Origin: a virus
Taxonomy: Duplodnaviria; Caudoviricetes
Length of the DNA: 64,000 bases
Strand: one strand, 5' to 3'
IMG/VR virus record: IMGVR_UViG_3300035429_000172
Span: 2,905-66,904 of that record
Part shown: piece after piece, positions 22,563 to 39,931 of the stretch
Position numbering within the stretch: the first letter of the stretch is position 1
Layout of the letters: the number at the start of each line of letters is the position of its first letter
The notes under the pieces: generated by a model
The model's database searches: none
Seen by the model: only the letters and a program-made list of their open reading frames with translations
What the model was told of the DNA's origin: nothing
Translations under genes and position numbers: made by a program

Positions 22563-22913
22563 ATGGAGTCAAAAACAAATGATGTAAAAGAATTCTTTGA
22601 TGAGGCCGTTAAGATCAAAGAACAACGAGGTAAAAATTATGATAATGGTGGCAAATCGGCGTTTGAGCGTTCAATGGATATGTTCGACGAAAAAAATGCA
22701 GTAGTAGTATCAATTTGGCCTGTTGTTCAAAAAGCATCGAGATTAGTTTCGTTGGCTAAAGAAGTTCAAGAAATTCAAAACGGTAGTTCTACCTTGAGTT
22801 TATCAGAGGCGATAAAGTCTATGGACGATACAAGCAAAGATCTTGTTAACTATACTGCTATGCAATGGGTAAGAAACGTAAAACCTTATCTTAAAAAGGG
22901 AGAGCAAAAATAA
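22563..22913 (+). CDS. Hypothetical protein, possibly nucleotide-modification-associated domain
   Basis: IKEQRGKNYDNG and DLVNY motifs; family assignment from memory. Confidence 0.4.
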   Translation: MESKTNDVKEFFDEAVKIKEQRGKNYDNGGKSAFERSMDMFDEKNAVVVSIWPVVQKASRLVSLAKEVQEIQNGSSTLSLSEAIKSMDDTSKDLVNYTAMQWVRNVKPYLKKGEQK

Positions 22914-22918
22914 GTGGC

Positions 22919-23347
22919 TTGAATGCGTCACAAACCACTGTTTCTTTTGTTATTCCAGGACAGCCAGTAGGGCAAGGTAGACCGAGATTTACTACTAGAG
23001 GACGATATCCACATGCTGTTGACCCACCAAAATCACGGCAGTATAAAAATCTAGTGAAAAAACTTGCATATGATGCTTATCAGGGAGAACCGTTAGATGG
23101 GCCTATAAAAATTAAATTGATTCATTATTTTGAAATTCCCAAGAGTTATTCCAAAAAAAGAAAAAAGGCTTGTTTAGAAGGTACAGAAAGACCAACTAAA
23201 AAGCCAGATATCGATAATGTTTATAAAGGAATTGCTGATGCAATGAGTGGAATAATTTATCAGGACGATAAGCAGATAGTAGAAGATATGCAGGAGCAAT
23301 GGTATAGTTTAACGCCTTGTGTTAAAGTTGAGGTAATGCAAATATAA
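22919..23347 (+). CDS. rusA: RusA-family Holliday junction resolvase
   Basis: VGQGRPRF, KKPDIDNVYKGIADAMSGIIYQDDKQIV. Confidence 0.9.
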   Translation: MNASQTTVSFVIPGQPVGQGRPRFTTRGRYPHAVDPPKSRQYKNLVKKLAYDAYQGEPLDGPIKIKLIHYFEIPKSYSKKRKKACLEGTERPTKKPDIDNVYKGIADAMSGIIYQDDKQIVEDMQEQWYSLTPCVKVEVMQI

Positions 23348-23350
23348 TTG

Positions 23351-23391
23351 AAAGAGTTCTATTCATTTTATTGAGTAGAACTCTTTTTTTT
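23351..23391 (+). terminator. Intrinsic terminator ending the early operon
   Basis: AAAGAGTTCTA/TAGAACTCTTT stem followed by a T run. Confidence 0.85.
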
Positions 23392-23401
23392 AAAAATTCG
23401 C

Positions 23402-23430
23402 TTGTGACCATTTTAAAAACTACATATCAT
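23402..23430 (+). promoter_or_regulatory. Putative sigma-A promoter for the ncRNA cluster
   Basis: TTGTGA-N17-TATCAT. Confidence 0.5.
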
Positions 23431-23478
23431 AGAATATGTCCTAATAAAGAAGACATTTGACACAGTCCACATATTCTG

Positions 23479-27560: not shown

Positions 27561-28288
27561 TGAAGCGTATAGCAAAAATAGTCACTATTTTAGGACTAGC
27601 AACTGTTTCTTTGGGCACAACTGGTAATAACGTTTATGCTATAAGTCATTCATCTGCCCATCCATCATCTCATCCCTCTGCACACCCTAGTTCACATCCA
27701 ACAAGCCATCCAACAACGGCCAGACCTACATCTCGTCCAGCGACTACACCACATACTTCGGCCACGCCACATTCTAATAACGTCCACGGTTCAAGTTCTA
27801 CTATGCATGCTCCTAATAGCACAACCAGAACAAATACTAGTCCAGGAAATACAAGCAGCAAAACATCAAATACGGGTACTGCTAAAACAGTATCTCCAAC
27901 TACAAAAGCTATAAATCGTTTGCCACAAACCCTTAAAGTATCTAAAAGTATTGAACGTGCAAAAACGACTACAACATATCATTCTTTAAGCAGTAATTCC
28001 TATAGATCAGATTACTTATATTGGCATGGGTATTGTGACGCTTATTATAGACGACCTATGTTTAGCTACTATTATCCATGGATGCCTTGGTGGTTCTGGA
28101 ATTCACACAATTATGAGTCTACTAAGGTGAAACAAGAAGCTCAAAAGAAAAATATGCGGTGGATTAAAGTTGACGATAAAGCAATTGCTGTTCCTAAAAA
28201 GATATACGCCAAGATTAAAGTAGGGGATACAGTCGAGCTCACTGATAACACGCATATTAATATTAACGGTCACACTTATAGTAGGTAG
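27560..28288 (+). CDS. Secreted low-complexity His/Ser/Pro/Thr-rich protein
   Basis: Signal peptide to VYA, HPSS/HPSA/HPTS repeats, aromatic YYYPWMPWWFW segment. Confidence 0.75.
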   Translation: MKRIAKIVTILGLATVSLGTTGNNVYAISHSSAHPSSHPSAHPSSHPTSHPTTARPTSRPATTPHTSATPHSNNVHGSSSTMHAPNSTTRTNTSPGNTSSKTSNTGTAKTVSPTTKAINRLPQTLKVSKSIERAKTTTTYHSLSSNSYRSDYLYWHGYCDAYYRRPMFSYYYPWMPWWFWNSHNYESTKVKQEAQKKNMRWIKVDDKAIAVPKKIYAKIKVGDTVELTDNTHININGHTYSR

Positions 28289-28334
28289 AGAGCGAAGATA
28301 ATGAAGAAAAATAGGGAGGAACAAAAATTTATCT

Positions 28335-28901
28335 ATGGCAAAAACACTCATCCTTATTATTTTTTATTTTTGCATCGGTATAGCAATAGGACTACTGATT
28401 GCAAAGCTTAAAGCGCTTAAGAAAAAAGATGTTGAATTAGAATTACAAGAGAAAATTGATACACTAAAAATTGAAAAAGAAGAAATCACTTTAGAAAACG
28501 AAAAATTAAAAAATTTTCTTGAAGAAAAACAAAACGAAATAACACAGAATTCGGTTCAAAACAAATTCGATGAGTTCTGTTCCAGATACAAGTCAGATGC
28601 TATCGCAAAGATTAAGTTGAAAAATAAAAAGTTAGTCCTTACAGGATTTATTAATGAAACTCAACTAGAACAATCGCTAGCATTAAATACCAAATATGTA
28701 TCTTTTTATAGAATACAGAGTAAAATACCATACAGTATTTCTAAAGTTTTCTTTGGAACTTCATATATTAACGAATTAAGCGATAAATATTATTGGAGCG
28801 ACGGATGGATAAAGCCAAAAGATTATGCGATAGATTGGAAAACATCTAGAATGTATATAAAATTATCAGATCTTGAAGACATAGAAATTGAAAGTGACTA
28901 A
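28335..28901 (+). CDS. Membrane-anchored coiled-coil protein
   Basis: N-terminal TM helix followed by heptad-rich region. Confidence 0.65.
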   Translation: MAKTLILIIFYFCIGIAIGLLIAKLKALKKKDVELELQEKIDTLKIEKEEITLENEKLKNFLEEKQNEITQNSVQNKFDEFCSRYKSDAIAKIKLKNKKLVLTGFINETQLEQSLALNTKYVSFYRIQSKIPYSISKVFFGTSYINELSDKYYWSDGWIKPKDYAIDWKTSRMYIKLSDLEDIEIESD

Positions 28902-29066
28902 TAAATAGTTAGTGCTGAGAGGAGCATTCTAAGTTCTTTAAAAAGTATTTAGGCCAATTAATCGAAATAGAAACATTAGATTTTAAAGAAGCATACATTG
29001 ATTAGAGATAGATAGTATAATTATTTTAAGATCAACTTTGATGGCCGTAGGAGTAGGTATCAAAGT

Positions 29067-29095
29067 AAGCTCTCTGATTACAGGAGAGCTTTTTT
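29067..29095 (+). terminator. Intrinsic terminator
   Basis: AAGCTCTCT/GGAGAGCTT plus T run. Confidence 0.7.
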
Positions 29096-29105
29096 GTAGG
29101 GAGGG

Positions 29106-29402
29106 ATGAATAAAGTGACAAAAAGAATAAAGCCTAAATGGCAGCTTGAAAAAGAACAAAGTAAAAAGGGGAGGATTTTTGATTCTCTAAATGATTATGC
29201 CAATTCTCTCCGAAAAGCTTTTGAAAATTTAGGTAAAACATTTCATTGGGGATATAGTAAAACGAAAAGTAAAGATACTGGTGGGATAGTAACTGCTAAT
29301 ACCATTACTTTGTTTAAGGATAGGAACGATGAAATTAGAAAGAAAGCCGATCAGCTATCGAAAAGACTAGACGAGTTAGAAAGAAAAATAAACGGGCATT
29401 AA
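29106..29402 (+). CDS. Hypothetical protein
   Basis: GGAGG RBS, followed by a hairpin and T run. Confidence 0.55.
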   Translation: MNKVTKRIKPKWQLEKEQSKKGRIFDSLNDYANSLRKAFENLGKTFHWGYSKTKSKDTGGIVTANTITLFKDRNDEIRKKADQLSKRLDELERKINGH

Positions 29403-29542
29403 AAATATTATATATTAATTATTGCTATTGTACTTTCCTTGAAAGAAAGCAATGGCTTTTTTTATGTCCTTAAAAAGGTTTGTATTCTAACCCCGTCGAT
29501 TTCGACCGGTTTAAATTTTTTTGCGGGAGTTATCTAACTCGA

Positions 29543-29571
29543 TTGTGACCATTATTAATCATCCCTATAAT
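29543..29571 (+). promoter_or_regulatory. Putative sigma-A promoter
   Basis: TTGTGA-N17-TATAAT. Confidence 0.6.
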
Positions 29572-30076
29572 GAACTAAGATAGCTTTATAGGGGGGATAA
29601 AATGCGGTTGAAAAATTAATCGACCGTTTTTGCGACCGTTTTTAGTTAGAATAAAAATTAAACGCCCTAGCTTTTACGAACTGGGGCGTACTTTATTGAA
29701 TAGAAAGAGTTTAATTATATGCTATCTAATTTTAATGTTGCATTTGGATTTGTTAGAAACTATGGACGTATTTTATTTAAACAGGCTGGTATTTACTATG
29801 ATGGTACTAATGTAGTTGTCAGAATGCTCAATAATGGCAGTTTAGTAGTGGTGTCAAAAAATGTCGTCCCAACACAACTATCCTATAAATGTCGTAACTT
29901 ACTTGATATGTCAATGGACAAAGGGGAGAGTTAATTGTGACTACAAAAGAATTTGAGCAAGAAATAAAGACAGGCCTAAATAAATTGAGTGAACAGGATA
30001 TTAAACGTATAAGGGATGAGTTCAATTCTGAGCCAGATTATTCTATTCCTAGTCAAAGCCCAAAAAATAATCGTCT

Positions 30077-30230
30077 CAAAAATGATAGGGGGGTATATTT
30101 TTCATTTGAAAATTCGAAAATTTAGAGTCTTCAAAAATGACAGGGGGATAAAATTTTTATTTCAAAACTCGAAAAAATTAGACCTTCAAAAATTAATGGG
30201 GGGTATATTTTTCATTTCAAAAATTGTTTT
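30077..30230. repeat. Three degenerate 55-bp tandem repeats
   Basis: Units start CAAAAAT at 30077, 30132, 30187, each with a G5-6 run then ATATTTTTCATTT-like sequence. Confidence 0.8.
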
Positions 30231-30254
30231 TTCAGTAAAGTAGGAGACTTAGTA

Positions 30255-30931
30255 ATGCCAGATTTCAATATATTTCATATGAAAAATGATCCAATAAATT
30301 TGGACTCAGATCAAGTTTGCGAAATAAGACGAATATACGATAGTAGAAGAACAAAGAGTAAATATTGGTGTCCCTTTTGTGATTTTCACATAGGAAATGA
30401 TGAAACAACTAAAATTGCTGAATTAGAAATACCAACAAAGGTTAAAGAAGCGAATCTATATCATGGCTACATCTTTTCATCATTAGATATGGAAAATTTG
30501 TGGGATTATCCTACTAATTGGTTAAGTGAAATTAGAATGCTGGTTAAAGCTAATAATTGCTATGGTTTATATAGAGAAATTACAGATTCTCACAGGATAA
30601 GCAGCGCTTATATATCAATAGTAAAGAGATGTCCTAAATGTAATAGGAGGTTAACAGATTGGGAAAAAGACCTGTTATATATAAAAAGCACCCCATGAAG
30701 GGATGCTATAAGATGAACAAACATGATAGATGGAAAGCTGAAATGCTGTTAAACAGTGATTGGATGAAACGATTTACACATATCACTAATGCAATGATTT
30801 ATGATGAAGCCACAAGAATTAGTGGCATCGACTGGTTTACTGATAAAAACTATAGCTCGCATAAATACACAGAAGTAAAACTACAAGCAGCTCATAATCT
30901 AAGAAAGAAGTACATTAAATATGCAAGATAA
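30255..30931 (+). CDS. Zinc-binding hypothetical (30255-30698) and hypothetical ORF ending 30931
   Basis: CPFC..CPKC; coupled ORFs. Confidence 0.6.
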
Positions 30932-31187
30932 AGATTTTTTATATCAATCAGTTCATAAAACTTGGGAACAATTGAAACTTCCTGCTGAACTTATGGATCA
31001 ATATTGATATCAACCACGTGTAGTTTGGCAGTCATACATTGCTGGCAACCGAAAAATGATGTTTTTCTTGGATGCATTTAAAGATCCGTGTCATGTGGGT
31101 AATTTCTACATTGAATGCACTTTTGTGGCACATGACTGCTCACTTTCGATTGATATTTATCAGCTACATTCTCACAACTCATACTGA
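30921..31187 (+). pseudogene. Hypothetical gene with in-frame TGA
   Basis: MQDKDFLYQSVHKTWEQLKLPAELMDQY, TGA 31005-31007, same frame stays open to TGA 31185-31187. Confidence 0.55.
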
Positions 31188-31595
31188 TCCAGAAAATAAG
31201 AGAATTTATTCCCAGAAAAAGCATGCTTTTTATATATACAGAAGAAAAATTTTTTCTGAAAAAAGCATGCTTTTTATATATGCTTATTTGGCTTTCATCC
31301 CGGAAAACTTTTTCTTTGAAAAGATCTTTCTTCTATATATCTAAATATCTAATTTGAACACATGTTCGCTTACTATTATATAGTCGTAATGTAATTAAAA
31401 GCTTCTATATAATGTAGAGAAAACATGCTAACAGCTCTAAAAAGGGCTATTTTTGCCCGCTAGCACCTTTTTTCTCCCTACACTTCTAATTGTATTCATG
31501 TTTTTAAAAATCTTAGTTGCTAGCTATCTACCTTATATAGATAAATCCTTATTTAGTAAGTGTTCAGACTATGCGAAAAAAGTTTATAAAAGGGG

Positions 31596-31624
31596 TTGAC
31601 TAATTTAAATCATAATATTATGAT
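31596..31624 (+). promoter_or_regulatory. Promoter/operator, cassette A
   Basis: TTGACT-N17-TATGAT overlapping perfect palindrome ATCATAATATTATGAT (31609-31624). Confidence 0.8.
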
Positions 31625-31716
31625 CATTGTGTAAGGTTGATTAAGGCAAAATAAAAAGCCTTAAAGGTAGAGCCCTCAAGACCTTACTAAATTTAATAGC
31701 AAAGGGCGCAAAAGCC

Positions 31717-31812
31717 ATGAGTATTACAGTAACTTTTGCGGATCCTAAAATAATTTTATTTATTGTAGCTGTTTGTGTTTGGCTATATGAACAGCACAAA
31801 AATAAAAAATAA
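31717..31812 (+). CDS. 31-aa hydrophobic peptide, type I toxin-like (cassette A)
   Basis: MSITVTFADPKIILFIVAVCVWLYEQHKNKK; not in the ORF track. Confidence 0.65.
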   Translation: MSITVTFADPKIILFIVAVCVWLYEQHKNKK

Positions 31813-31881
31813 GATTCGTAAAGGGTAAGCTTAAAGGCTTGCCCTTTGCTATAAGTATACCATATAAAAGGAGTTTGAAAA

Positions 31882-32124
31882 ATGGTATTAAGTGAAGAAG
31901 AAAAGAAAAGAAGACATAGAGAAGCACAAAGGCGCTATAATGCTAGACGCATAAAAAAGAGACTAGCAGGAGACAAAAAGGAATTAGAACAGTATGAAAG
32001 AGACAAAGCCAATTCAATGTATGGGAATGTTAAGAGTTATATAAGCGAACAGGCAACAAAAGCCCAATTATTAGAATTTAGGGACTTAATAGCAGAACGC
32101 CAGAAAAAACTTTCAAAAAAATAA
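31882..32124 (+). CDS. Small basic helical protein (cassette A)
   Basis: REAQRRYNARR..YISEQATKAQLLEFRDLIAER; paralog of 33933 and 34274. Confidence 0.75.
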   Translation: MVLSEEEKKRRHREAQRRYNARRIKKRLAGDKKELEQYERDKANSMYGNVKSYISEQATKAQLLEFRDLIAERQKKLSKK

Positions 32125-32134
32125 ATAAAAAGTA

Positions 32135-32163
32135 TTGACTATCATAATATTATGATATATTAT
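32135..32163 (+). promoter_or_regulatory. Promoter/operator, unit A2
   Basis: TTGACT-N17-TATTAT with palindrome TATCATAATATTATGATA (32140-32157). Confidence 0.8.
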
Positions 32164-32346
32164 AAATATGTAAGTTGAAGAGGGAACAAAAAAAGCCCAG
32201 TGCGGGAACACTGAGCAAACTCAAAAACTTATAAAGTGTCTAAACAATATAAATAGTAGGCTAGAAGCCTTTTAATTTGAGTAACTATATAATACCAAAT
32301 TAGAAGCTTCTAGTCTAGCAAAATTTAGATTAGGAGTGTTTTTATT

Positions 32347-33355
32347 ATGGTTAAAAATGAAGTAAAAGAATTTAATGTTTACGGTAATGTTTACGGTGTA
32401 AGCCTTTGGCGTTCTGGTATGGCTGCGATTTTTGATATGTTAGACGGCTTAGCAGGCAGTAAAGAAAATAGTGAATTACATGAATATAAACAAGCACTAA
32501 ACCAAGAAGGAACATACAGCCTAAAAATTAACGGTAAATTTAACCCGAACAGCGTTTCAAGTTCTGAACTATTTAATAATTTTGCTGATGATTTAAAAGC
32601 TAATATCTTAAATAGTGAGCTTGAACAAGTTGGATTTAGTAAAGAATGGTTAATAAGTCAACATAATAAATTAGTTGAAATAGCTATCAACTTAAACAAG
32701 AACAAAGTAGAAATTGAATATTAAGAGGTGTTGAAAATGAAGACTATAAAAAATGTTGCAGACGTTAAAAGTTTAGATATAATAGCAGCATTTAAACAAG
32801 CAAAAAAGGTTTATTACGATACAGTTGAAGAAGTTTGCGGGAGTATAACCGCCTATAACACCCCTAAACAATCTAACAAAATTGATGAAGCACTAAAAAA
32901 ATACGATAAAAAATTTTATATTAACAATCGTCAATTTTTAGAAATTTCCATCATTGATGCAAGTTTTGAAAAATATGGCGTCGGGGCGCTATTTATAGGC
33001 TTTAACGATGACACGGGCGAGAACTTCAACCACTATCCCTCGGCAAGCTTTGAGGTGTGTTATTCACTTAGTGAAGTTGCTTACTATTGGAATGATTTTT
33101 TAAAGCGATTGAATGAAAATACTTTTATTTACAGATAGAAGAAACAAAGTGAAAAAAATAAAATTTGTGTTTATTGAGTATGTGCCGGCTAGCAAGAAAC
33201 TAGAAGAATTTGAAGAAGTCGCAAGCTTTGCGCCTGAATTGATGGAAGTTGCACAGCGGACTTTTAAAAGTTATAAAAAGAGCTTAGAAAATAGCGAAAA
33301 TGATTGCTATTTAGGCATTCAATACCAAGACGGCGACAGCGAAAAAATTATGTAA
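32347..33355 (+). CDS. Three hypothetical proteins downstream of the A2 promoter (32347-32724, ORFs ending 33138 and 33355)
   Basis: ORFs with RBS; followed by a broken ORF remnant and a terminator at 33604-33635. Confidence 0.6.
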
Positions 33356-33644
33356 AGGAGTATTTAAAATGTTAGAAAGTGAAGTATTTACAACAGTAGC
33401 AGGATATAAAAAGCATTAGCTAATTTAGTTATTAAAGCAGCAAAGCAAAATAAAAAATAAGTTTGCTTGGTATATATCTATGTGATGCAAATAGCGGTGG
33501 ACTAGATGAAAACGAAATACAATTTTTTGAACGAATAGTGAAAGACGGCAAAAAGGACGGGCGTAAGTGGGTTCTAAGATATCCTAAGACAATATAAAAC
33601 AATAAAAAAGACGGCTAAAGTAGCCGTTTTTATTTATATTTTAC

Positions 33645-33673
33645 TTGATTTTATATCTTATAAGGTATATTAT
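33645..33673 (+). promoter_or_regulatory. Promoter/operator, cassette B
   Basis: TTGATT-N17-TATTAT with near-palindrome TATATCTTATAAGGTATA (33652-33669). Confidence 0.75.
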
Positions 33674-33778
33674 AATACTTGTGATGGGGATGGAATGGTA
33701 AACCTGAAACCTCACACGTGGCAAAGTAAAAGCCGTGGGCTTTTGCAGAACCCACGGCAACAATAGAAAGGGTAAGCA

Positions 33779-33871
33779 ATGACCATCACAATAACTATTG
33801 CTAGTCCCTACTTCTTAATTATTATTATAGCGGGAATAATTGCCGTTGTAAACAATAAGAAAAAGAAGTAA
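33779..33871 (+). CDS. 30-aa hydrophobic peptide, type I toxin-like (cassette B)
   Basis: MTITITIASPYFLIIIIAGIIAVVNNKKKK; homologous to the cassette A peptide. Confidence 0.7.
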   Translation: MTITITIASPYFLIIIIAGIIAVVNNKKKK

Positions 33872-33932
33872 AGAGCTATAACGTGGGTAAGTCGGAGGGC
33901 TTGCCCTTTCTATTTATATAAGGGGCTTTATT

Positions 33933-34133
33933 ATGAAAACAAGCAACGCACAACGAAAAGCAAATAAAAAATATAAGGATAACCACCCAGACAAACAACG
34001 CACTTACGTCGCAAGGTCAACCGCTAAGCGTTTTGTAAAAGAACTTGCAACACTTAAAGACTTAGACGAACTAACGGCGCTTATACAAGCTAAACGCCAA
34101 GAACTAAGAGAAGGCGAGAACGATGAAAAATAA
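33933..34133 (+). CDS. Small basic helical protein B1
   Basis: SNAQRKANKKY..RSTAKRFVKELATLKDLDELTALI. Confidence 0.8.
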   Translation: MKTSNAQRKANKKYKDNHPDKQRTYVARSTAKRFVKELATLKDLDELTALIQAKRQELREGENDEK

Positions 34134-34305
34134 GGCAATTCAAAATGGTATCACTTTAATTGTTTTATTAAGCTTTTTAATTGGCGCAATAAAAGAAAGA
34201 AGTATACTATTAGCAACAATCTTTTTTATAGGTATAATCATTTTTATAATTGTTAAGTTAAGAGGTGGGAACGATGGCAACGGAAGCACAAAAAAAGGCT
34301 CGTGA
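34123..34305 (+). CDS. Small two-TM membrane protein
   Basis: Two hydrophobic segments; overlaps neighbouring genes. Confidence 0.6.
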   Translation: MKNKAIQNGITLIVLLSFLIGAIKERSILLATIFFIGIIIFIIVKLRGGNDGNGSTKKGS

Positions 34306-34459
34306 TAAGTGGAAGGCTAAGAATAAAGAAAAGAACGCGCTTATTAATAAGCGATCGACGGCAAGAAGTTTTATAAGAAGGTTCGCTAGCTTGGAAGACT
34401 TGGAAGAGTTAAAAGGGCTAATAAAGGAACGCGAAACCGAGCTAAAAAGCGAAAAATAA
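34274..34459 (+). CDS. Small basic helical protein B2
   Basis: TEAQKKARDKW..RSTARSFIRRFASLEDLEELKGLIKER. Confidence 0.8.
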   Translation: MATEAQKKARDKWKAKNKEKNALINKRSTARSFIRRFASLEDLEELKGLIKERETELKSEK

Positions 34460-34472
34460 TTTATTAATTCTC

Positions 34473-34501
34473 TTGACTCTATACCCTATAGGGTATATTA
34501 T
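34473..34501 (+). promoter_or_regulatory. Promoter/operator, cassette C
   Basis: TTGACT-N17-TATTAT with perfect palindrome TATACCCTATAGGGTATA (34480-34497). Confidence 0.8.
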
Positions 34502-34578
34502 AATATATGTAAGGAGGTTGAAAGCCTTAACCGAGTAAACTTCCTTACGATTCCCGAATAGTGGGAGGTGGTCGGCAC

Positions 34579-34728
34579 TTGGCTTATAAGTCACGTAAAG
34601 ACTACCAGCGAAAAATAAGGGCACAAAAAAAGGCGAAAAGATGGAACTTAATAGAACATCTTAACACCTTAATAAACCTTATTATAGCGCTGGTTCAGCT
34701 CTGGTTACTTTACCACCAATACCACTAA
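34579..34728 (+). CDS. 49-aa basic/hydrophobic peptide (cassette C)
   Basis: GGGAGG RBS, TTG start, MAYKSRKDYQRKIRAQKKAKRWNLIEHLNTLINLIIALVQLWLLYHQYH. Confidence 0.55.
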   Translation: MAYKSRKDYQRKIRAQKKAKRWNLIEHLNTLINLIIALVQLWLLYHQYH

Positions 34729-34804
34729 GGGAAGTAACCACTAAGGGGCGAGCGTTAAGGGCTTGCCCTTTTGTGGTTTTATTATACCATGAAGGAGCTT
34801 TATT

Positions 34805-34966
34805 ATGAAAAAAAGAAAAAACATTATTAAGTTAATAGATTTTATTGTGCTTCTGATTGCTCTTTTTACTTTAGTTTTTTATGAATTTGATACATATAAA
34901 TTAATTTCTGGGCTGGTTGTTTTATCGTGTAGCATTTCATTATATATAGAAACATTTAAAAATTAA
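34805..34966 (+). CDS. 53-aa two-TM membrane protein (cassette C)
   Basis: AAGGAG RBS; MKKRKNIIKLIDFIVLLIALFTLVFYEFDTYKLISGLVVLSCSISLYIETFKN. Confidence 0.65.
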   Translation: MKKRKNIIKLIDFIVLLIALFTLVFYEFDTYKLISGLVVLSCSISLYIETFKN

Positions 34967-34980
34967 GATAAACGAATTTA

Positions 34981-35012
34981 AAGGCTATCTATTTATTTAG
35001 GTAGCCTTTTTT
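34981..35012 (+). terminator. Intrinsic terminator closing the cassette array
   Basis: AAGGCTATCTA/TAGGTAGCCTT plus T run. Confidence 0.8.
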
Positions 35013-35672
35013 ATTTGCTCATTTAATAACATATGTTTGCTTAGCTTCAATGGCTATTAAAGCTTATATCATTAAGCAACTATAAGACTAATAAGAGAGA
35101 TACACACGACAACACCAGCACCCAAAGCATAGACATCGAACAAGCTAAACTACTAAGACACTTAAGGCTTAACTATATAAGGAAGAAGGTAACGGCACGA
35201 GCTTATAGACCACAACCCAAACAACACCAGTAAGACTATGCACGCGAACAATTACAACTACAACACTATTACTATTTCTTATCATATTACTAAGAACACA
35301 AGTAAGAGAATAGAAAAAACATACCAGCAAGACGCAGGAGCACACAAGAGCACAACAAGGCTATATAAGGCAAGTAATACCACAATACTACAAACTCATA
35401 TATTAAGTGTGTCACGTGCGGAAAAAATGCGGAACCATTGGACGGCTTAAGGTGCTATATTGATAGCATACAGAACTAGAGTTCAGGACGCGCACGCGTG
35501 CGGCTGCTGGCTGTACCTTGTACCATCGCATACGATAGCACACCACACCAGCGACGCGACCACGTGAGACACTACACACGATAGACAAGCAAGACAACGA
35601 CAAGAATAACAATTATAAATTACTTTTGTTTTTTCTTTTTTTGTTTTATAAAAAAAGATTTTTCTTCTTTCT

Positions 35673-36065
35673 TTGTCGTTTGTTGCTACACTATCAGCAA
35701 TCCAACACAGCAAGAGAAGAGCAGACACAGTGAACCGATACAGATACGAGACAAACAACAATACTTTCTACCATTCGCAAGCGTGGAGAACGCTACGACG
35801 TCAAGCGCTCGAACGTGATAAACATCTTTGCCAAATCTGTTTGCAACACAACGAACTCACGTTTGCCGATACAGTACACCACATTAAGCCTATAAGGGAA
35901 AACGACTCGGAAAAATTGTGCCTTGAAAACCTTGTGACTGTTTGCCGTAAGTGCCACAACGAGCTACACCGTGAAAAGCCTATGACTTTAAAAAAGAAAA
36001 AAAGACGTTTAAACAACTATACCAATTTAGTGAAACGGTTCACAAACAACAAAGAAGTATGGTGA
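35673..36065 (+). CDS. HNH endonuclease (packaging-associated); start uncertain
   Basis: CQIC..VHHIKP..NLVTVCRKCHNELH directly upstream of terS. Confidence 0.9.
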   Translation: MSFVATLSAIQHSKRRADTVNRYRYETNNNTFYHSQAWRTLRRQALERDKHLCQICLQHNELTFADTVHHIKPIRENDSEKLCLENLVTVCRKCHNELHREKPMTLKKKKRRLNNYTNLVKRFTNNKEVW

Positions 36066-36081
36066 AAATTCACCAGATATA

Positions 36082-36156
36082 GCCCCCCTGGGGTGAAAAA
36101 TATTGCTGTGTTGACACCGGTGGAGCGGTGCAGGCCCCCACTTCACGATAAATTCG
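36082..36156. other. Putative cos region
   Basis: GC-rich island CCCCCC...ACCGGTGGAGCGGTGCAGGCCCCC between HNH and terS; exact ends not determinable. Confidence 0.5.
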
Positions 36157-36269
36157 CTTTATTTTTGAAAAAAAGTGGGTCGAAATAGGGTGTACCAATT
36201 CTATTTTATATAGATAATAAAACCGCGCGTATGCTAAAAATTAACGAAAGGAGGTAGACCAATTTAGCT

Positions 36270-36728
36270 ATGCCTAGAAATGCTCAAAGTGCTTATATAC
36301 AGTTGCTTAATGGCAATCCAAATAAGCGTACAAAAAAGCAATTAAAAAAGAGAATTAAGCAAGAAGAAAAGCTTCAAGTTTCAGCCGAAGATATGGATAT
36401 ACCAATTTCAGCTGATGCAGGGGTGAAAAAGGAGTATAACCGAATTTTAAAAGTGTTTAAGGATTCGGACCTTTTTAACGAAGCTGATGTCACAACTTTG
36501 GCTCGATATGCCGATTTATGGGGCGAATACGTTGCAGCTAATCGTCGATTGAAAAAGAACGGTAAGTACCACGATGGAAAGCTTGATCCTGATTTAGGTT
36601 TTAAATTAAAGTTATCTGCTGAACTAGACAAGTTAGCAAAAGAATTAGGTTTAACTCCCGCTGCGCGTGCATCCCTTGCAATAAGCAAGAAAGATGATGA
36701 GCCTGATAAGTCGGATGACGACTTTTAA
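36270..36728 (+). CDS. Terminase small subunit (P27 family)
   Basis: LLNGNPNKR, LARYADLW, ELGLTPAARA. Confidence 0.9.
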   Translation: MPRNAQSAYIQLLNGNPNKRTKKQLKKRIKQEEKLQVSAEDMDIPISADAGVKKEYNRILKVFKDSDLFNEADVTTLARYADLWGEYVAANRRLKKNGKYHDGKLDPDLGFKLKLSAELDKLAKELGLTPAARASLAISKKDDEPDKSDDDF

Positions 36729-36742
36729 AGGAGGTTTTATTT

Positions 36743-37201
36743 ACGACCGAAACAGAATCAATTTTAGATAAGAACCCATTAGATCTTGACTATCAAGGCG
36801 TGGTCGAATGGGTAAATAAATATAAAGAACGGGAGAGGTCTCTAGGTCACATCTTAGATAAACCTGCTCCCGCTTTATTAGCCACTTTTTATGCTCAAAT
36901 GGTTGCAGAAGGCTCTATTGTTTCTAATGAGTGGGTAAGAAGAGCTTGTGAGCGTCATTTAAAAGACCTAAAAAGATCAGAAGAAGATCCTGATTATCCG
37001 TGGGTTTTCGATGAAGAAAAAGCTTGGCGACCTATTCGGTTTATCGAAAAGAAGTGTCATCCTACTAAAGGTAATTTTAAGCATTTAGTTATGCAACCTT
37101 GGCAACATTTTATCGTTGGTAGCATGTTTGGTTGGGTTAACAGAGATACAGGAATGAGACGATTTCGTGAATCATTGATATTCGTTGGACGTAAAAACGG
37201 T
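36743..37201 (+). CDS. Terminase large subunit, exon 1 (start ACG 36743 or GTG 36800)
   Basis: VRRACERHLKDL, LVMQPWQHFIVG, ends at Walker A GRKNG. Confidence 0.85.
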
Positions 37202-38188
37202 AAACGTTTTGCCGTTTAAAAATCGAGCAAAATCGGTAAAAAACTTTAATTATGAATAGTTATTTTCTCTATAAACATACAAATCAAATTAATGGCAAAG
37301 TATACATTGGGATAACAAATGACATTTCACGGAGATGGCGTAATCAAGGCATAGAATATAAGCCCCATTCTTCAAACACATCCCGATTTTGGAATGCTAT
37401 ACAAAAATATGGATGGAATAATTTTAAACATGAGATTCTAATCAACAACTTAACTTCACAAGAAGCATGTAAGAAAGAAATAGAATATATAGCTAAGTAC
37501 GATTCGACTAATCGTTTAAAAGGATACAATATTGCAAGTGGTGGAAATGGAGGAAGAATCTGGAAAGAACATCCTCGTGGCATGCTTGGTAAACATCAGA
37601 CTAAGTTTGAAATAGAATCTCACAGATTGCTTTTGAGCGATCCGCACAAGAATCCAATGCTTAATGGTAAAACAGTATGGGGAAGAACTCATCCACATCC
37701 TCGTGGCATGCTTGGTAAGCACCAAACAGAACATCATAGGTTAGTCATGAGTAAACAAGTGGGAAATAAGAATCCAAATAGCAAAGGATTAAAAGTTATA
37801 TTTCCAAATAATACTATTAGGACATGGCCTACGATGAAAGCTTTTGTTGATGAATATGGTTTTTATAAAGTATATGAGTTAGTTAAAAGTGGAAAGCCAT
37901 ATAATGTTGATTTGAGAAAAATAAAAAAGAAAGATAGAGAAAAATGCTCTTATTTCATGGGATGTATTTTTAAACATCAATAAAGAAAATACCGAGGTAA
38001 CTTGTTAGATTGCGTAAGGCTAATAAGTACCGTAACGCATAGAGCTTGAATAAATATAATAGCTCCAAGAGTGTTCGACATTCTTAAGGAATGAAAATAT
38101 ATGCTAAACCAGAATGGAATTAACCATTCGATGAAAATGAGGGTGACCTCTGGAGTGTAAGATAAAAAGCTTACAGTTAAGAACAAAG
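37202..38188 (+). mobile_element. Group I self-splicing intron in terL
   Basis: P1 AAACGGU/GCCGUUU with U.G at the 5' splice site, P3 TCGAGCA/TGTTCGA, P7 GCATA/TATGC, terminal G38188; splicing restores GRKNG-KTELESGLADY in frame. Confidence 0.88.
37252..37983 (+). CDS. Intron-encoded GIY-YIG homing endonuclease
   Basis: FLYKHTNQINGKVYIGIT, E and GYN motifs, repeated HPRGMLGKHQT units. Confidence 0.9.
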   Translation: MNSYFLYKHTNQINGKVYIGITNDISRRWRNQGIEYKPHSSNTSRFWNAIQKYGWNNFKHEILINNLTSQEACKKEIEYIAKYDSTNRLKGYNIASGGNGGRIWKEHPRGMLGKHQTKFEIESHRLLLSDPHKNPMLNGKTVWGRTHPHPRGMLGKHQTEHHRLVMSKQVGNKNPNSKGLKVIFPNNTIRTWPTMKAFVDEYGFYKVYELVKSGKPYNVDLRKIKKKDREKCSYFMGCIFKHQ

Positions 38189-39529
38189 AAAACTGAACTA
38201 GAATCGGGACTTGCAGATTATATGGCTGGTTTTGATGGAGAAAATGGACCAAACGTTTACTTTTTAGCCAACTCACAGCAACAGTCCCGACTATTATTTG
38301 AAGCATCACGTTCAATGATTAGAAAATCGCCATGGCTAAGTGAAAGATTTGTGCCTAATCGCAGTGAAATTCGTTTTCCTGCTACTGATGGAAAGATCAT
38401 GGCAATGTCAGCTGAAAAGAGTAACAAAGATGGAGAAAACGTTCACTTCGCCGTTTTCGATGAAATCCATGAATATCAAGATTACAGCTTAATTAACGTA
38501 ATGAAAAACAGTCGTGGTACACGTACACAACCATTAATTGTTTACATTACTACTGCTGGTTTTGTCCTCGATGGTCCACTAATGGATATGGTGGAGCAGG
38601 CACAAGATACTCTTAAAAACTATGAAGATGACATAAATTCACGTACTTTTTACTACATTGCTAGCCTAGACAATGAAAAAGAGACAGAAGATCCTACTAA
38701 GTGGGTTAAAGCTAATCCTAATATTGGCTTAATGCAAATGGTTGATATGATTACCGACTTTAAATCAGCTAAGCGTGTTCCTCGAGAATATGCTGACTGG
38801 TTAACTAAACGTTTCAACATATTTGCTGATGCTGATGAGATGAGCTTTATCACTCCTGAAATTTTGAAAAAGAATAATCAACACATTAATTTGAATACTT
38901 TATTAGATCGAGATTGTATCGGTGGTTATGACCTATCTGATACAGAAGACTTTACGTCAGCATGTCTGGAATTCCCTCTGGACGATGGTGGCGTTTTTAT
39001 TTTGGAACATTCTTGGATTCCACATCGTAGATATGAGCAAGATAAGAACCCAGAACGTATAAGAATGTGGGAAAAACAGGGAGAAATAACAATTATTCCT
39101 GGCGATTATGTCGATTTCAGCTATGTTTACGACTGGTTTAAAGATATGTCTGAAAAGTACAACATTGTGCAGATTAATTACGACCCTGCTAAGGCAATTA
39201 GACTTAATAAGCAGATGGAAGAATTTGGATTTAAGACCCAACCAGTACGTCAAGGTTTCTTTACTCTTGGTGGTCCAATGCAAAACTTTAAAGAATTACT
39301 GCTTGATGGCAAGGTCGTATTTAATGAGCAATCAATGTTTAAGTGGTACTTAAATAATGTCGAGCTAATTACAGATAGAAATGATAACTGGATGCCTACT
39401 AAGACATCTCGTTCCCGTAAGATTGATGGCTTTGCAGCAGCATTAGATGCACACGTAAGTGTAATTGACATGCTAGTTGAACCAGACGATGACGATGAAC
39501 CAATATCACAATTTATTTCTTTTAGATAA
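38189..39529 (+). CDS. Terminase large subunit, exon 2
   Basis: Walker B AVFDEIHE, ITTAG, GGYDLSDTEDFT, KIDGFAA. Confidence 0.92.
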   Translation, partial: KTELESGLADYMAGFDGENGPNVYFLANSQQQSRLLFEASRSMIRKSPWLSERFVPNRSEIRFPATDGKIMAMSAEKSNKDGENVHFAVFDEIHEYQDYSLINVMKNSRGTRTQPLIVYITTAGFVLDGPLMDMVEQAQDTLKNYEDDINSRTFYYIASLDNEKETEDPTKWVKANPNIGLMQMVDMITDFKSAKRVPREYADWLTKRFNIFADADEMSFITPEILKKNNQHINLNTLLDRDCIGGYDLSDTEDFTSACLEFPLDDGGVFILEHSWIPHRRYEQDKNPERIRMWEKQGEITIIPGDYVDFSYVYDWFKDMSEKYNIVQINYDPAKAIRLNKQMEEFGFKTQPVRQGFFTLGGPMQNFKELLLDGKVVFNEQSMFKWYLNNVELITDRNDNWMPTKTSRSRKIDGFAAALDAHVSVIDMLVEPDDDDEPISQFISFR

Positions 39530-39568: not shown

Positions 39569-39931
39569 ATGGTACTTCTTTCTATGGAAGATGGTTCACC
39601 AACTATATACGTTAATGGAGAGTATCGATGGGTGAAGATTAAGGAAATACAAATGAATAAAAGACAGAAAATTAAGCTCTTGCGGAACAACCCGCAGGGC
39701 TTTTTTTGTAGATATGGTAAAAATCAAGCTATATCACTTGCCTGCTGGTGTGTGTTAAATCGAGGCATCAGTGGAGAATTACTTTTTAATCAAATAGAAA
39801 TGATTATATTTTTTGAAGACGAACGCTGGAAGTATGGATTGCTTAAAGCTCATGAAGCAGAATTAAACCAATCCCAGCAAGGACTTTTGAAGTATGTAAA
39901 ATCTAAGTTCATGAGCTGGCTTCCCGAATAG
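39569..39931 (+). CDS. Hypothetical protein between terL and portal (start uncertain)
   Basis: ORF track only. Confidence 0.35.
   Translation: MVLLSMEDGSPTIYVNGEYRWVKIKEIQMNKRQKIKLLRNNPQGFFCRYGKNQAISLACWCVLNRGISGELLFNQIEMIIFFEDERWKYGLLKAHEAELNQSQQGLLKYVKSKFMSWLPE

Follow-up and report, generated by a model that had tools for sequence, protein, structure and literature searches.

The DNA between positions 31596 and 35012 of the phage sequence analysed here raises the question of what four tandem transcription units of one design, three of them opening with a very short hydrophobic reading frame, do for the phage that carries them. The sequence (the window) comprises 64 kb, bases 2905–66904 of the 66.9-kb single-contig virus record IMGVR_UViG_3300035429_000172. 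The units are named U1–U4, and their gene products A (the short hydrophobic peptide), B (a small membrane protein) and C (a basic protein); L numbers denote related loci. Judged from the sequence, U1, U3 and U4 are read, with a probability of roughly 0.55, as type I toxin–antitoxin-like cassettes of the yonT/SR6/yoyJ type, each joined to a protein-level autoregulator, and U2 is best read as a cargo operon wired to the operator of U1.

According to this reading, a strong sigma-70 promoter would drive each transcript, which in U1, U2 and U4 would start with a protective 5′ stem. The first open reading frame (ORF) would encode A, the presumed toxin, a membrane peptide of 30–49 amino acids (aa). 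In the finished mRNA, the ribosome-binding site of A would be shut by pairing with an anti-Shine–Dalgarno (anti-SD) sequence near the end of the ORF, provided by the 3′ arm and tail of a hairpin in U1 and U3 and by the last codons of the ORF in U4. A convergent minus-strand promoter (an extended −10 box just past the hairpin in U1 and U4, a full promoter inside the ORF in U3) would give rise to a cis-antisense RNA, the presumed RNA antitoxin, covering the hairpin, the ORF or the Shine–Dalgarno (SD) sequence and ending at minus-strand terminators in the leaders. The downstream genes would supply B, as a second small membrane protein, and C, a protein of three helices. C would dimerise through helices 2 and 3, bind with its basic N-terminal half to a palindrome overlapping the −10 box and repress its own cassette; C80, the C protein of U1, would repress U2 as well, by way of the operator common to promoters P1 and P2.

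The first-pass annotation of the window had described four promoters of one design and leaders that in three cases open with a GTAAG stem, and both descriptions were borne out. The sites at 31596, 32135, 33645 and 34473 (P1–P4) scored 9–10 out of 12 in a consensus scan and were among the best consensus matches of the region. Because promoter-like hexamers occur there at chance level (33 found, 34 expected in this A+T-rich DNA), the evidence for P1–P4 is their common design and conservation, not the scan. Each consists of TTGA(C/T)T, a 17-nucleotide (nt) spacer, a TAT-type −10 box and a spacer palindrome reaching the −10 box. P1 and P2 have a perfect 16-mer in common, found exactly only at these two sites in 64 kb, and P3 and P4 share a second palindrome type, TATA(C/T)C..TATA..G(G/A)GTATA. 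Both operator types are confined to the four promoters within the window, and all four promoters are conserved in related phages. For comparison, homologues of C were collected and their surroundings inspected (53 representative loci); perfect palindrome arms of at least 7 were present at 25 of 31 promoters across these loci, versus 2.3 % of control segments. In U1, U2 and U4, the predicted transcription start is the G of GTAAG, and in the folds the stem that closes the leader begins at this nucleotide; U3 has no such stem, as noted before.

The hydrophobic peptides of 30–49 aa and the conserved hairpins behind them, both pointed out in the same annotation, also proved real. With 31, 30 and 49 residues, pep1, pep3 and pep4 fall within the size and hydrophobicity expected of type I toxins (∼20–60 aa); pep1 and pep3 are paralogues (z 8.5). 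Thirteen natural variants of pep3 display 3, 3 and 16 variable columns at codon positions 1, 2 and 3, which is a coding signature, and the 49-codon frame of pep4 is maintained among relatives, in which a 12-nt insertion stays in frame. A GTG codon at 34561 was ruled out as the start of pep4, since a stop codon separates it from the TTG in relative L033; an ATG at 34641 starts a frame of just 7 codons in the window and gives no conserved ORF. In some lineages the peptides have decayed. In L003, the copy in a 348-kb bacterial contig, pep3 is shortened to 27 residues without the Lys tail and pep4 is frameshifted in an A-run; the pep3 ribosome-binding sites of L015 and L017 are weakened; and prophages of Lactobacillus gasseri have lost the end of pep1 together with the hairpin (L106–108) or most of pep1 (L103–105), with promoter, operator and C retained. 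Such decay is in keeping with a gene whose misregulation carries a cost, without being proof of it.

The 8-mer GCTTGCCC is present three times in 64 kb, once in each of hairpins 1, 3 and 4. The 3′ arm of the hairpin is anti-SD-like across all loci, and in U1 and U3 it forms 16–17 predicted pairs with the ribosome-binding site of the peptide. The duplexes between the start region of the peptide and the hairpin 3′ arm and tail (U1: −27.6 kcal/mol, 0th percentile; U3: −25.3 kcal/mol) were stronger than every background 30-mer tried (sampled every 7 nt over 28000–38000). In U4, the minimum-energy fold of the whole transcript pairs the SD sequence with the last codons of the pep4 ORF. Complementarity of the 3′ arm and tail to the start region of A lay at or below the 5th percentile of the background in 16 of 34 loci; for the 3′ arm and the start region of B there was no enrichment (3 of 32 loci). 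The authors of T1TAdb list SD/anti-SD pairing, 5′ and 3′ stem-loops and long-distance 5′–3′ pairing as hallmarks of type I toxin mRNAs, and place the antisense RNA of Gram-positive families on the 3′ side (PMC8594479). These mRNA hallmarks are present in the in silico folds of the array transcripts.

On the other strand, candidate antisense promoters were found. Just 3′ of the hairpin, the plus strand reads ATTATA-n-CA, which is a TGnTATAAT extended −10 box on the minus strand. Strict matches no more than 55 nt past the hairpin were found at 19 loci, and only 39 sites, these included, occur in the 160,845 nt of the loci. In relatives of U4, TG and TATAAT are constant, T, G or C stands at the n, and the adjacent ribosome-binding site of B differs; in U4 and in Listeria phage B025 alike, the −35 hexamer and the B start codon overlap. 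Both hexamers of the promoter inside pep3 are invariant, in contrast to variable synonymous sites within the spacer and immediately beside the promoter. Three strong leftward terminators lie in the leaders of U1–U3, despite the almost wholly rightward transcription of the phage. The one in U2 has its stem sequence replaced and its T-run retained in L. gasseri prophages, and in the L006 group of relatives two base pairs of the one in U3 have changed in a compensatory manner. Taken together, the minus-strand promoters and leader terminators predict antisense RNAs of about 200 nt (U1), 95 nt (U2) and 90 nt (U3).

The first-pass annotation had recognised no named system here; the core, however, follows the published yonT/SR6/yoyJ layout of SPbeta. 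This prophage produces a polycistronic yonT-yoyJ-yonU-yonV transcript, has extended −10 boxes for yonT and sr6, and encodes SR6, a 100-nt RNA that overlaps the 3′ end of yonT and promotes its decay via RNase III (Reif et al., PMC5848175). When the yonT locus itself was read, an extended −10 promoter was followed by a hydrophobic peptide with a TTG/GTG start and a very basic tail, a hairpin (AAGGGGA versus TCTCCTT) directly after the stop codon, the sequence ATTATAACAT, which is a minus-strand extended −10 box, and the membrane protein gene yoyJ. From the position of ATTATAACAT and the overlap of SR6 with the yonT 3′ end, the conserved TGnTATAAT motif is therefore located where the SR6 promoter must lie. 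The cassettes resemble this locus in their prophage-borne polycistronic layout, a small hydrophobic first ORF with a basic tail and a non-ATG start, an SD-like/anti-SD hairpin past the stop codon, a convergent extended −10 box and a second membrane-protein gene. Hairpin, convergent box and B all occur in U4; U1 is without B, and U3 has the hairpin and B with another antisense promoter. A peptides of the Clostridium type resemble YonT (z 5.2–5.9, a score reached by 0 of 300 shuffles), although they remain below the NCBIfam cut-off. Unlike SPbeta, the window has three tandem cassettes, and its peptides do not match the YonT model NF047537 (relative L039 reached 15.5 bits, the cut-off being 45); U3 uses an ORF-internal antisense promoter and a leader terminator, and the antisense RNAs are predicted. 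SPbeta, for its part, has neither a protein of family phrog_2277, to which C belongs, nor a palindromic operator at the yonT promoter; YonU was considered as a homologue of C and ruled out (hhalign probability 0.1 %).

The short ORF might instead be a non-toxic leader peptide that serves as a sensor: a ribosome at its stop codon would melt the hairpin and so set read-through into, or translation of, B and C, which would then be ordinary lysogenic-conversion or exclusion membrane factors. The geometry suits this, as the stop codon of A always lies between 17 nt inside and 23 nt before the start of the hairpin, within reach of a terminating ribosome. A T-run makes hairpin 4 terminator-like, and a weaker one follows hairpin 3, but most hairpins in other phages have no plus-strand T-run. 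Cassettes without the peptide persist in nature (the L. gasseri deletions; L096–L101); where present, however, the peptides are kept as membrane helices with Lys-rich tails under purifying selection, which is unusual for pure leader peptides. Attenuation would also leave the conserved minus-strand extended −10 box and the leader terminators unexplained, and the SPbeta locus of the same layout is a tested toxin locus. On balance, a leader peptide is considered unlikely.

The protein-level half of the proposed cassettes depends on C. The three basic proteins, taken for paralogues at first inspection, are indeed related: C66 and C61 match phrog_2277 (834 representative clusters at expect values (E) up to 0.001), and C80 is a distant paralogue with a marginal match (E 0.0087) and an hhalign probability of 85 % over the C-terminal 32 residues (two helices) only. 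The AlphaFold model of C has three helices (predicted local distance difference test (pLDDT) 95). A homodimer model scored 0.54, versus 0.01 for the best of three controls, with 100 % contact agreement between runs and a partner pLDDT of at least 78; among proteins of solved structure, 20 of 30 that pair two copies of one chain attain this mark, compared with 1 of 23 single-chain proteins, counts that are only rough because an alignment of our own was used. The predicted interface (residues 23–58) leaves helix 1 free, which is highly basic and has a conserved Trp/Tyr in the pattern AQ..A.K(W/Y)..KN. In L103–105, the operators of P1 and P2 change jointly from ATCATAATATTATGAT to ATCTTATATATAAGA(T), and in the phages with ATCTTATATATAAGA(T) operators (L. 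gasseri prophages) the N terminus of the C80 homologue has diverged (45 % identity). Over 23 loci, operator distance correlated with the distance between N-terminal halves of C (Mantel test, r 0.69; partial r 0.67 given the C-terminal half, reached by 0 of 2000 permutations), versus a partial r of −0.06 for the C-terminal half. Promoter-operator and C are the constant core of the module, even at loci without A or B. C thus probably represses the promoter of its own cassette, the evidence being co-variation, not binding. Some relatives with a C domain have acidic N- or C-terminal extensions of unknown fold, and a Pfam search with ten longer C-domain proteins gave no informative domain; a protein atlas search returned only clusters named "phage protein" and "hypothetical".

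The basic helix 1 with its conserved Trp/Tyr presumably recalls the arginine-rich motif of lambda N, and at loci L096, L097 and L101, which have neither A nor B, the hairpin lies directly upstream of C. C might accordingly be an RNA-binding antiterminator or translational regulator acting on the hairpin, with another factor on the palindromes. This is very improbable in view of the co-variation of the operators with the N-terminal half of C and of the constancy of promoter and C as the core of the module; moreover, U2 has an operator but no hairpin of the cassette type, hairpin sequences differ widely between phages, and C has no Pfam match to N-type proteins. Under the favoured reading, in which C acts on the operator, the hybrid of RNA-level and protein-level control proposed in the first-pass annotation fits the comparative evidence of SD/anti-SD pairing, minus-strand motifs and operator/C co-variation.

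That annotation had also made its case depend on the presence of the architecture beyond this phage. Automated criteria flagged A with a hairpin in 35 of the 53 loci, and about 31, from prophages of four genera (Clostridium, Listeria, Streptococcus and Lactobacillus), were judged genuine. The common order is palindromic promoter, A (23–61 aa), hairpin at the stop codon, minus-strand TGnTATAAT, B and C, with the B and C genes mostly overlapping. In Listeria phage B025, Clostridium phage phiCT19406C, Streptococcus phage Javan210 and one metagenomic phage, a membrane protein B of 30–54 aa precedes C; upstream of B are a near-consensus promoter with a spacer palindrome, a hydrophobic A of 33–46 aa with a Lys-rich end, and a G+C hairpin. 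In B025, phiCT19406C and Javan210, the lysin and the attachment site flank the module, and the interval between them is the usual place of accessory genes expressed from a prophage; two genomic positions of the module are seen among phages, one behind the lysin and one ahead of terS. The position in an accessory-gene region allows for a further possibility, that a type I locus was repeatedly inserted beside an independent regulator gene and the two halves are uncoupled neighbours. In SPbeta the RNA-controlled half occurs with no C, C is found at some loci that have no A or B, and the A peptides are of several unrelated sequence types and both topologies. Against such chance proximity, the order promoter-operator, A, hairpin, B, C under one promoter recurs in at least four genera and at two positions, and overlap of the B and C genes is usual; uncoupled neighbours are thus distinctly unlikely.

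Two observations on single loci were made in this survey. The record of B025 (L020) has gp29, gp30 and gp31 annotated at 22859–23463 on the strand opposite to the cassette, which consists of a promoter, a 33-aa peptide, a hairpin, a 45-aa membrane protein and a 69-aa phrog_2277 protein; the deposited annotation of this segment is probably on the wrong strand. In L012, a metagenomic phage, a cassette of peptide, hairpin, membrane protein and C adjoins a minus-strand DUF4325 gene; QueC and PAPS-reductase-like genes, also carried by this phage, suggest a 7-deazaguanine DNA modification pathway.

Several points weigh against the reading of U1, U3 and U4 as toxin–antitoxin-like cassettes with an autoregulator. 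Toxicity of the peptides and antisense transcription are predictions made from sequence. The window peptides matched no toxin family in Pfam, NCBIfam or PADLOC, and against YonT they score no better than noise (z −0.4 to 1.8); the Pfam model Fst_toxin gave no match at E up to 10, although very faint matches may be lost in the HMMER filters. Past its hairpin, U3 lacks an extended −10 box, and an antisense promoter within pep1 (31791–31762) is not relied on because its −10 box is gone in L006. Given the chance-level frequency of promoter-like hexamers stated above, the case for any single antisense promoter is its conservation. An Rfam search at E up to 5 returned chance-level matches only and no antisense RNA family. 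Contigs assembled from RNA libraries span 33317–34932, but they give no information on strand, transcript ends or expression levels and may derive in part from DNA; they speak neither for nor against the antisense RNAs, and lack of cover elsewhere in the array does not imply that it is silent there. No DNA-binding fold could be recognised in C, and a structure search with its model gave no meaningful match (Foldseek E >7; best VIA Z 5.5 at a root-mean-square deviation of 8.9). The Mantel test leaves some shared ancestry in the operator/C correlation. C and the palindrome are both missing from SPbeta, so that the two halves do not have to function jointly. Finally, the metagenomic protein P0178 (327 aa) is a natural fusion of a multi-pass membrane protein with a C-terminal phrog_2277 domain, which hints at a membrane-linked role of C instead of, or besides, DNA binding.

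Other known systems share parts of the design. The type I pairs of Clostridioides difficile prophages (CD0977.1-RCd11 and relatives) have unannotated toxins of 34–47 aa with a hydrophobic N terminus and a Lys-rich tail and a convergent antisense RNA, and have been proposed to aid prophage maintenance (PMC7699646). Compared by description, they have the toxin design and the convergent antisense layout in common with the cassettes, but no linked repressor protein or second membrane gene is described for them. As in hok/Sok and AapA1/IsoA1 (PMC5416894, PMC6733600), translation of the full-length toxin mRNA is predicted to be blocked, with a distal 3′ element pairing with the SD sequence, and in truncated folds early hairpins sequester the SD too; those systems differ in being Gram-negative, in having the antisense RNA at the 5′ side and in having no sequence relation to the cassettes. 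A small dimeric protein that would bind a palindrome over its own −10 box, encoded by a gene overlapping that of a potentially harmful partner (B), recalls autorepressed type II toxin–antitoxin operons. Unlike in these, C has no known antitoxin or DNA-binding fold, and the toxins, as presumed here, are membrane peptides controlled by RNA.

Likely roles of the cassettes would be, as the first-pass annotation had proposed, prophage retention, abortive infection or exclusion of other phages. On a wider scale, and with rather less than even confidence, we suspect a widespread, hitherto undescribed class of cassettes in temperate phages of Bacillota, in which a YonT/SR6-style toxin would be placed behind an operator-repressor pair, mRNA fold-back and an antisense RNA. 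The phrog_2277 family, a new kind of three-helix dimer, would have split into many operator specificities, as phage immunity repressors have, so that one phage could stack several independent cassettes; stacked cassettes and operator-wired cargo would serve retention or phage conflict. The core design had been described before. What is new is the protein layer added to it, how that layer has diversified, and how broad the family is. The yonT/SR6/yoyJ design, studied in one Bacillus phage so far, would thereby be extended to prophages of Clostridium, Listeria, Streptococcus and Lactobacillus, in whose genomes the A peptides are mostly unannotated, and for the uncharacterised family phrog_2277 a function that can be tested emerges, that of a dimeric operator-binding autoregulator. 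Should the peptides prove toxic, type I systems would gain a transcriptional lock at the protein level through the cassettes, which would also be candidates for stabilising prophages or for abortive infection in lactobacilli of gut and food. Matched operator-repressor pairs might also serve as small orthogonal switches for Gram-positive hosts.

Table 1. Predicted features of the array and their positions in the window.
Feature	Position	Strand	Remarks
P1	31596–31624	+	TTGACT-17-TATGAT; 16-bp palindromic operator 31609–31624
U1 leader 5′ stem	31631–31687	+	GTAAGGTT...AACCTTAC, from predicted +1; fold z −2.05
Intrinsic terminator in U1 leader	31647–31685	−	Fold z −3.2; conserved in L. gasseri relatives
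pep1 ribosome-binding region	31700–31716	+	Predicted pairing with 31836–31848 (hairpin 1 3′ arm and tail); minimum-energy fold
pep1	31717–31812	+	31 aa; hydrophobic, Lys-rich tail
Hairpin 1	31820–31847	+	5′ arm SD-like, 3′ arm anti-SD
Extended −10 promoter, U1	31854–31881	−	TGGTATACT; directed into hairpin 1 and pep1
C80	31882–32124	+	80 aa, basic; distant phrog_2277 paralogue with different N-terminal basic region
P2	32135–32163	+	Operator 32141–32156, identical to that of P1
U2 leader 5′ stem	32170–32232	+	GTAAGTT...AACTTAT; fold
Terminator in U2 leader	32185–32216	−	Fold z −3.2
Promoter-like site, U2 leader	32289–32317	−	TAGACT-17-TATTAT with TG; kept in relatives
U2 cargo genes	32347–33355	+	125, 133 and 80 aa; no family assigned
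Terminator closing U2	33607–33631	+	–
P3	33645–33676	+	Operator 33652–33669
Terminator in U3 leader	33722–33758	−	Fold z −4.0
pep3 ribosome-binding region	33762–33777	+	16 consecutive predicted pairs with 33899–33914; minimum-energy fold
pep3	33779–33871	+	30 aa; hydrophobic, KKKK end
Promoter inside pep3 (U3)	33824–33852	−	TTTACA-17-TATAAT, 11/12
Hairpin 3	33885–33906	+	Weaker T-run follows
C66	33933–34133	+	66 aa, basic; phrog_2277 E 3.8e-17
B60	34123–34305	+	60 aa, two-helix membrane protein; overlaps C66 and C61 genes
C61	34274–34459	+	61 aa, basic; phrog_2277 E 3.3e-21; three helices, predicted dimer
P4	34473–34504	+	Perfect 18-bp palindrome 34480–34497
U4 leader 5′ stem	34508–34549	+	GTAAGGAGG...CTTCCTTAC; fold
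pep4	34579–34728	+	49 aa, TTG start; basic N terminus, hydrophobic C terminus
Hairpin 4	34743–34771	+	T-run follows
Extended −10 promoter, U4	34781–34809	−	TGGTATAAT; its −35 overlaps B53 start codon
B53	34805–34966	+	53 aa, two-helix membrane protein
Terminator closing array	34980–35009	+	–

Searches of Pfam, PADLOC and NCBIfam with the small proteins and peptides of the array gave nothing significant, and no cassette component matched a PADLOC defence model beyond a weak match of B53 to the generic 2TM effector (SLATT-like) model (E 5.7e-4). The 133-aa cargo protein of U2 has a sub-threshold match to the RnlB antitoxin family (E 0.037). In the interval between U2 and U3 (32347–33600 and its equivalents in L001–L019), proteins of 173, 130, 68, 108 and 74 aa come and go; by this comparison, the interval is a swap site for accessory genes.

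The window is assigned by its gene content to a temperate Lactobacillus phage. With few exceptions, its genes lie on the plus strand. The left end encodes a divergently oriented CI-like repressor, a Cro-like helix-turn-helix protein and a Rha antirepressor, and a GH25 endolysin is encoded at the right end. The nearest relatives of the large terminase are those of Lactobacillus phages JNU_P1, JNU_P5 and JCL1032; C61 occurs in identical form on 580 contigs, including mouse-gut metagenomes and the 348-kb bacterial contig, and C80 has 88 %-identical homologues in L. gasseri. These genes and relatives are the basis of the assignment. A DNA search with 31400–35100 against 50,697 phage records gave no match. 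The array is flanked by the early region on one side and by an A/C-rich spacer, an HNH endonuclease gene, terS and terL on the other.

Between the array and the HNH gene, about 650 nt (35020–35680) are non-coding, with an AT skew of up to +0.45 and a GC skew of −0.35; a T-rich block lies at 35620–35680, where reads seem cut. This segment may be a cos/pac region or an RNA gene. The terL gene (36800–39529) is interrupted by a 987-nt insertion (37202–38188) containing an ORF for a GIY-YIG endonuclease (37252–37983). Contigs of four RNA libraries connect 37201 directly to 38189, and some relatives have an uninterrupted terL of 547 aa. The insertion looks like a mobile (group I-type) intron, although the joined contigs could also derive from insertion-free phages. 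At 39716–39843, 126 nt are skipped in contigs from three RNA-library runs, which is probably an in-frame length variant between strains.

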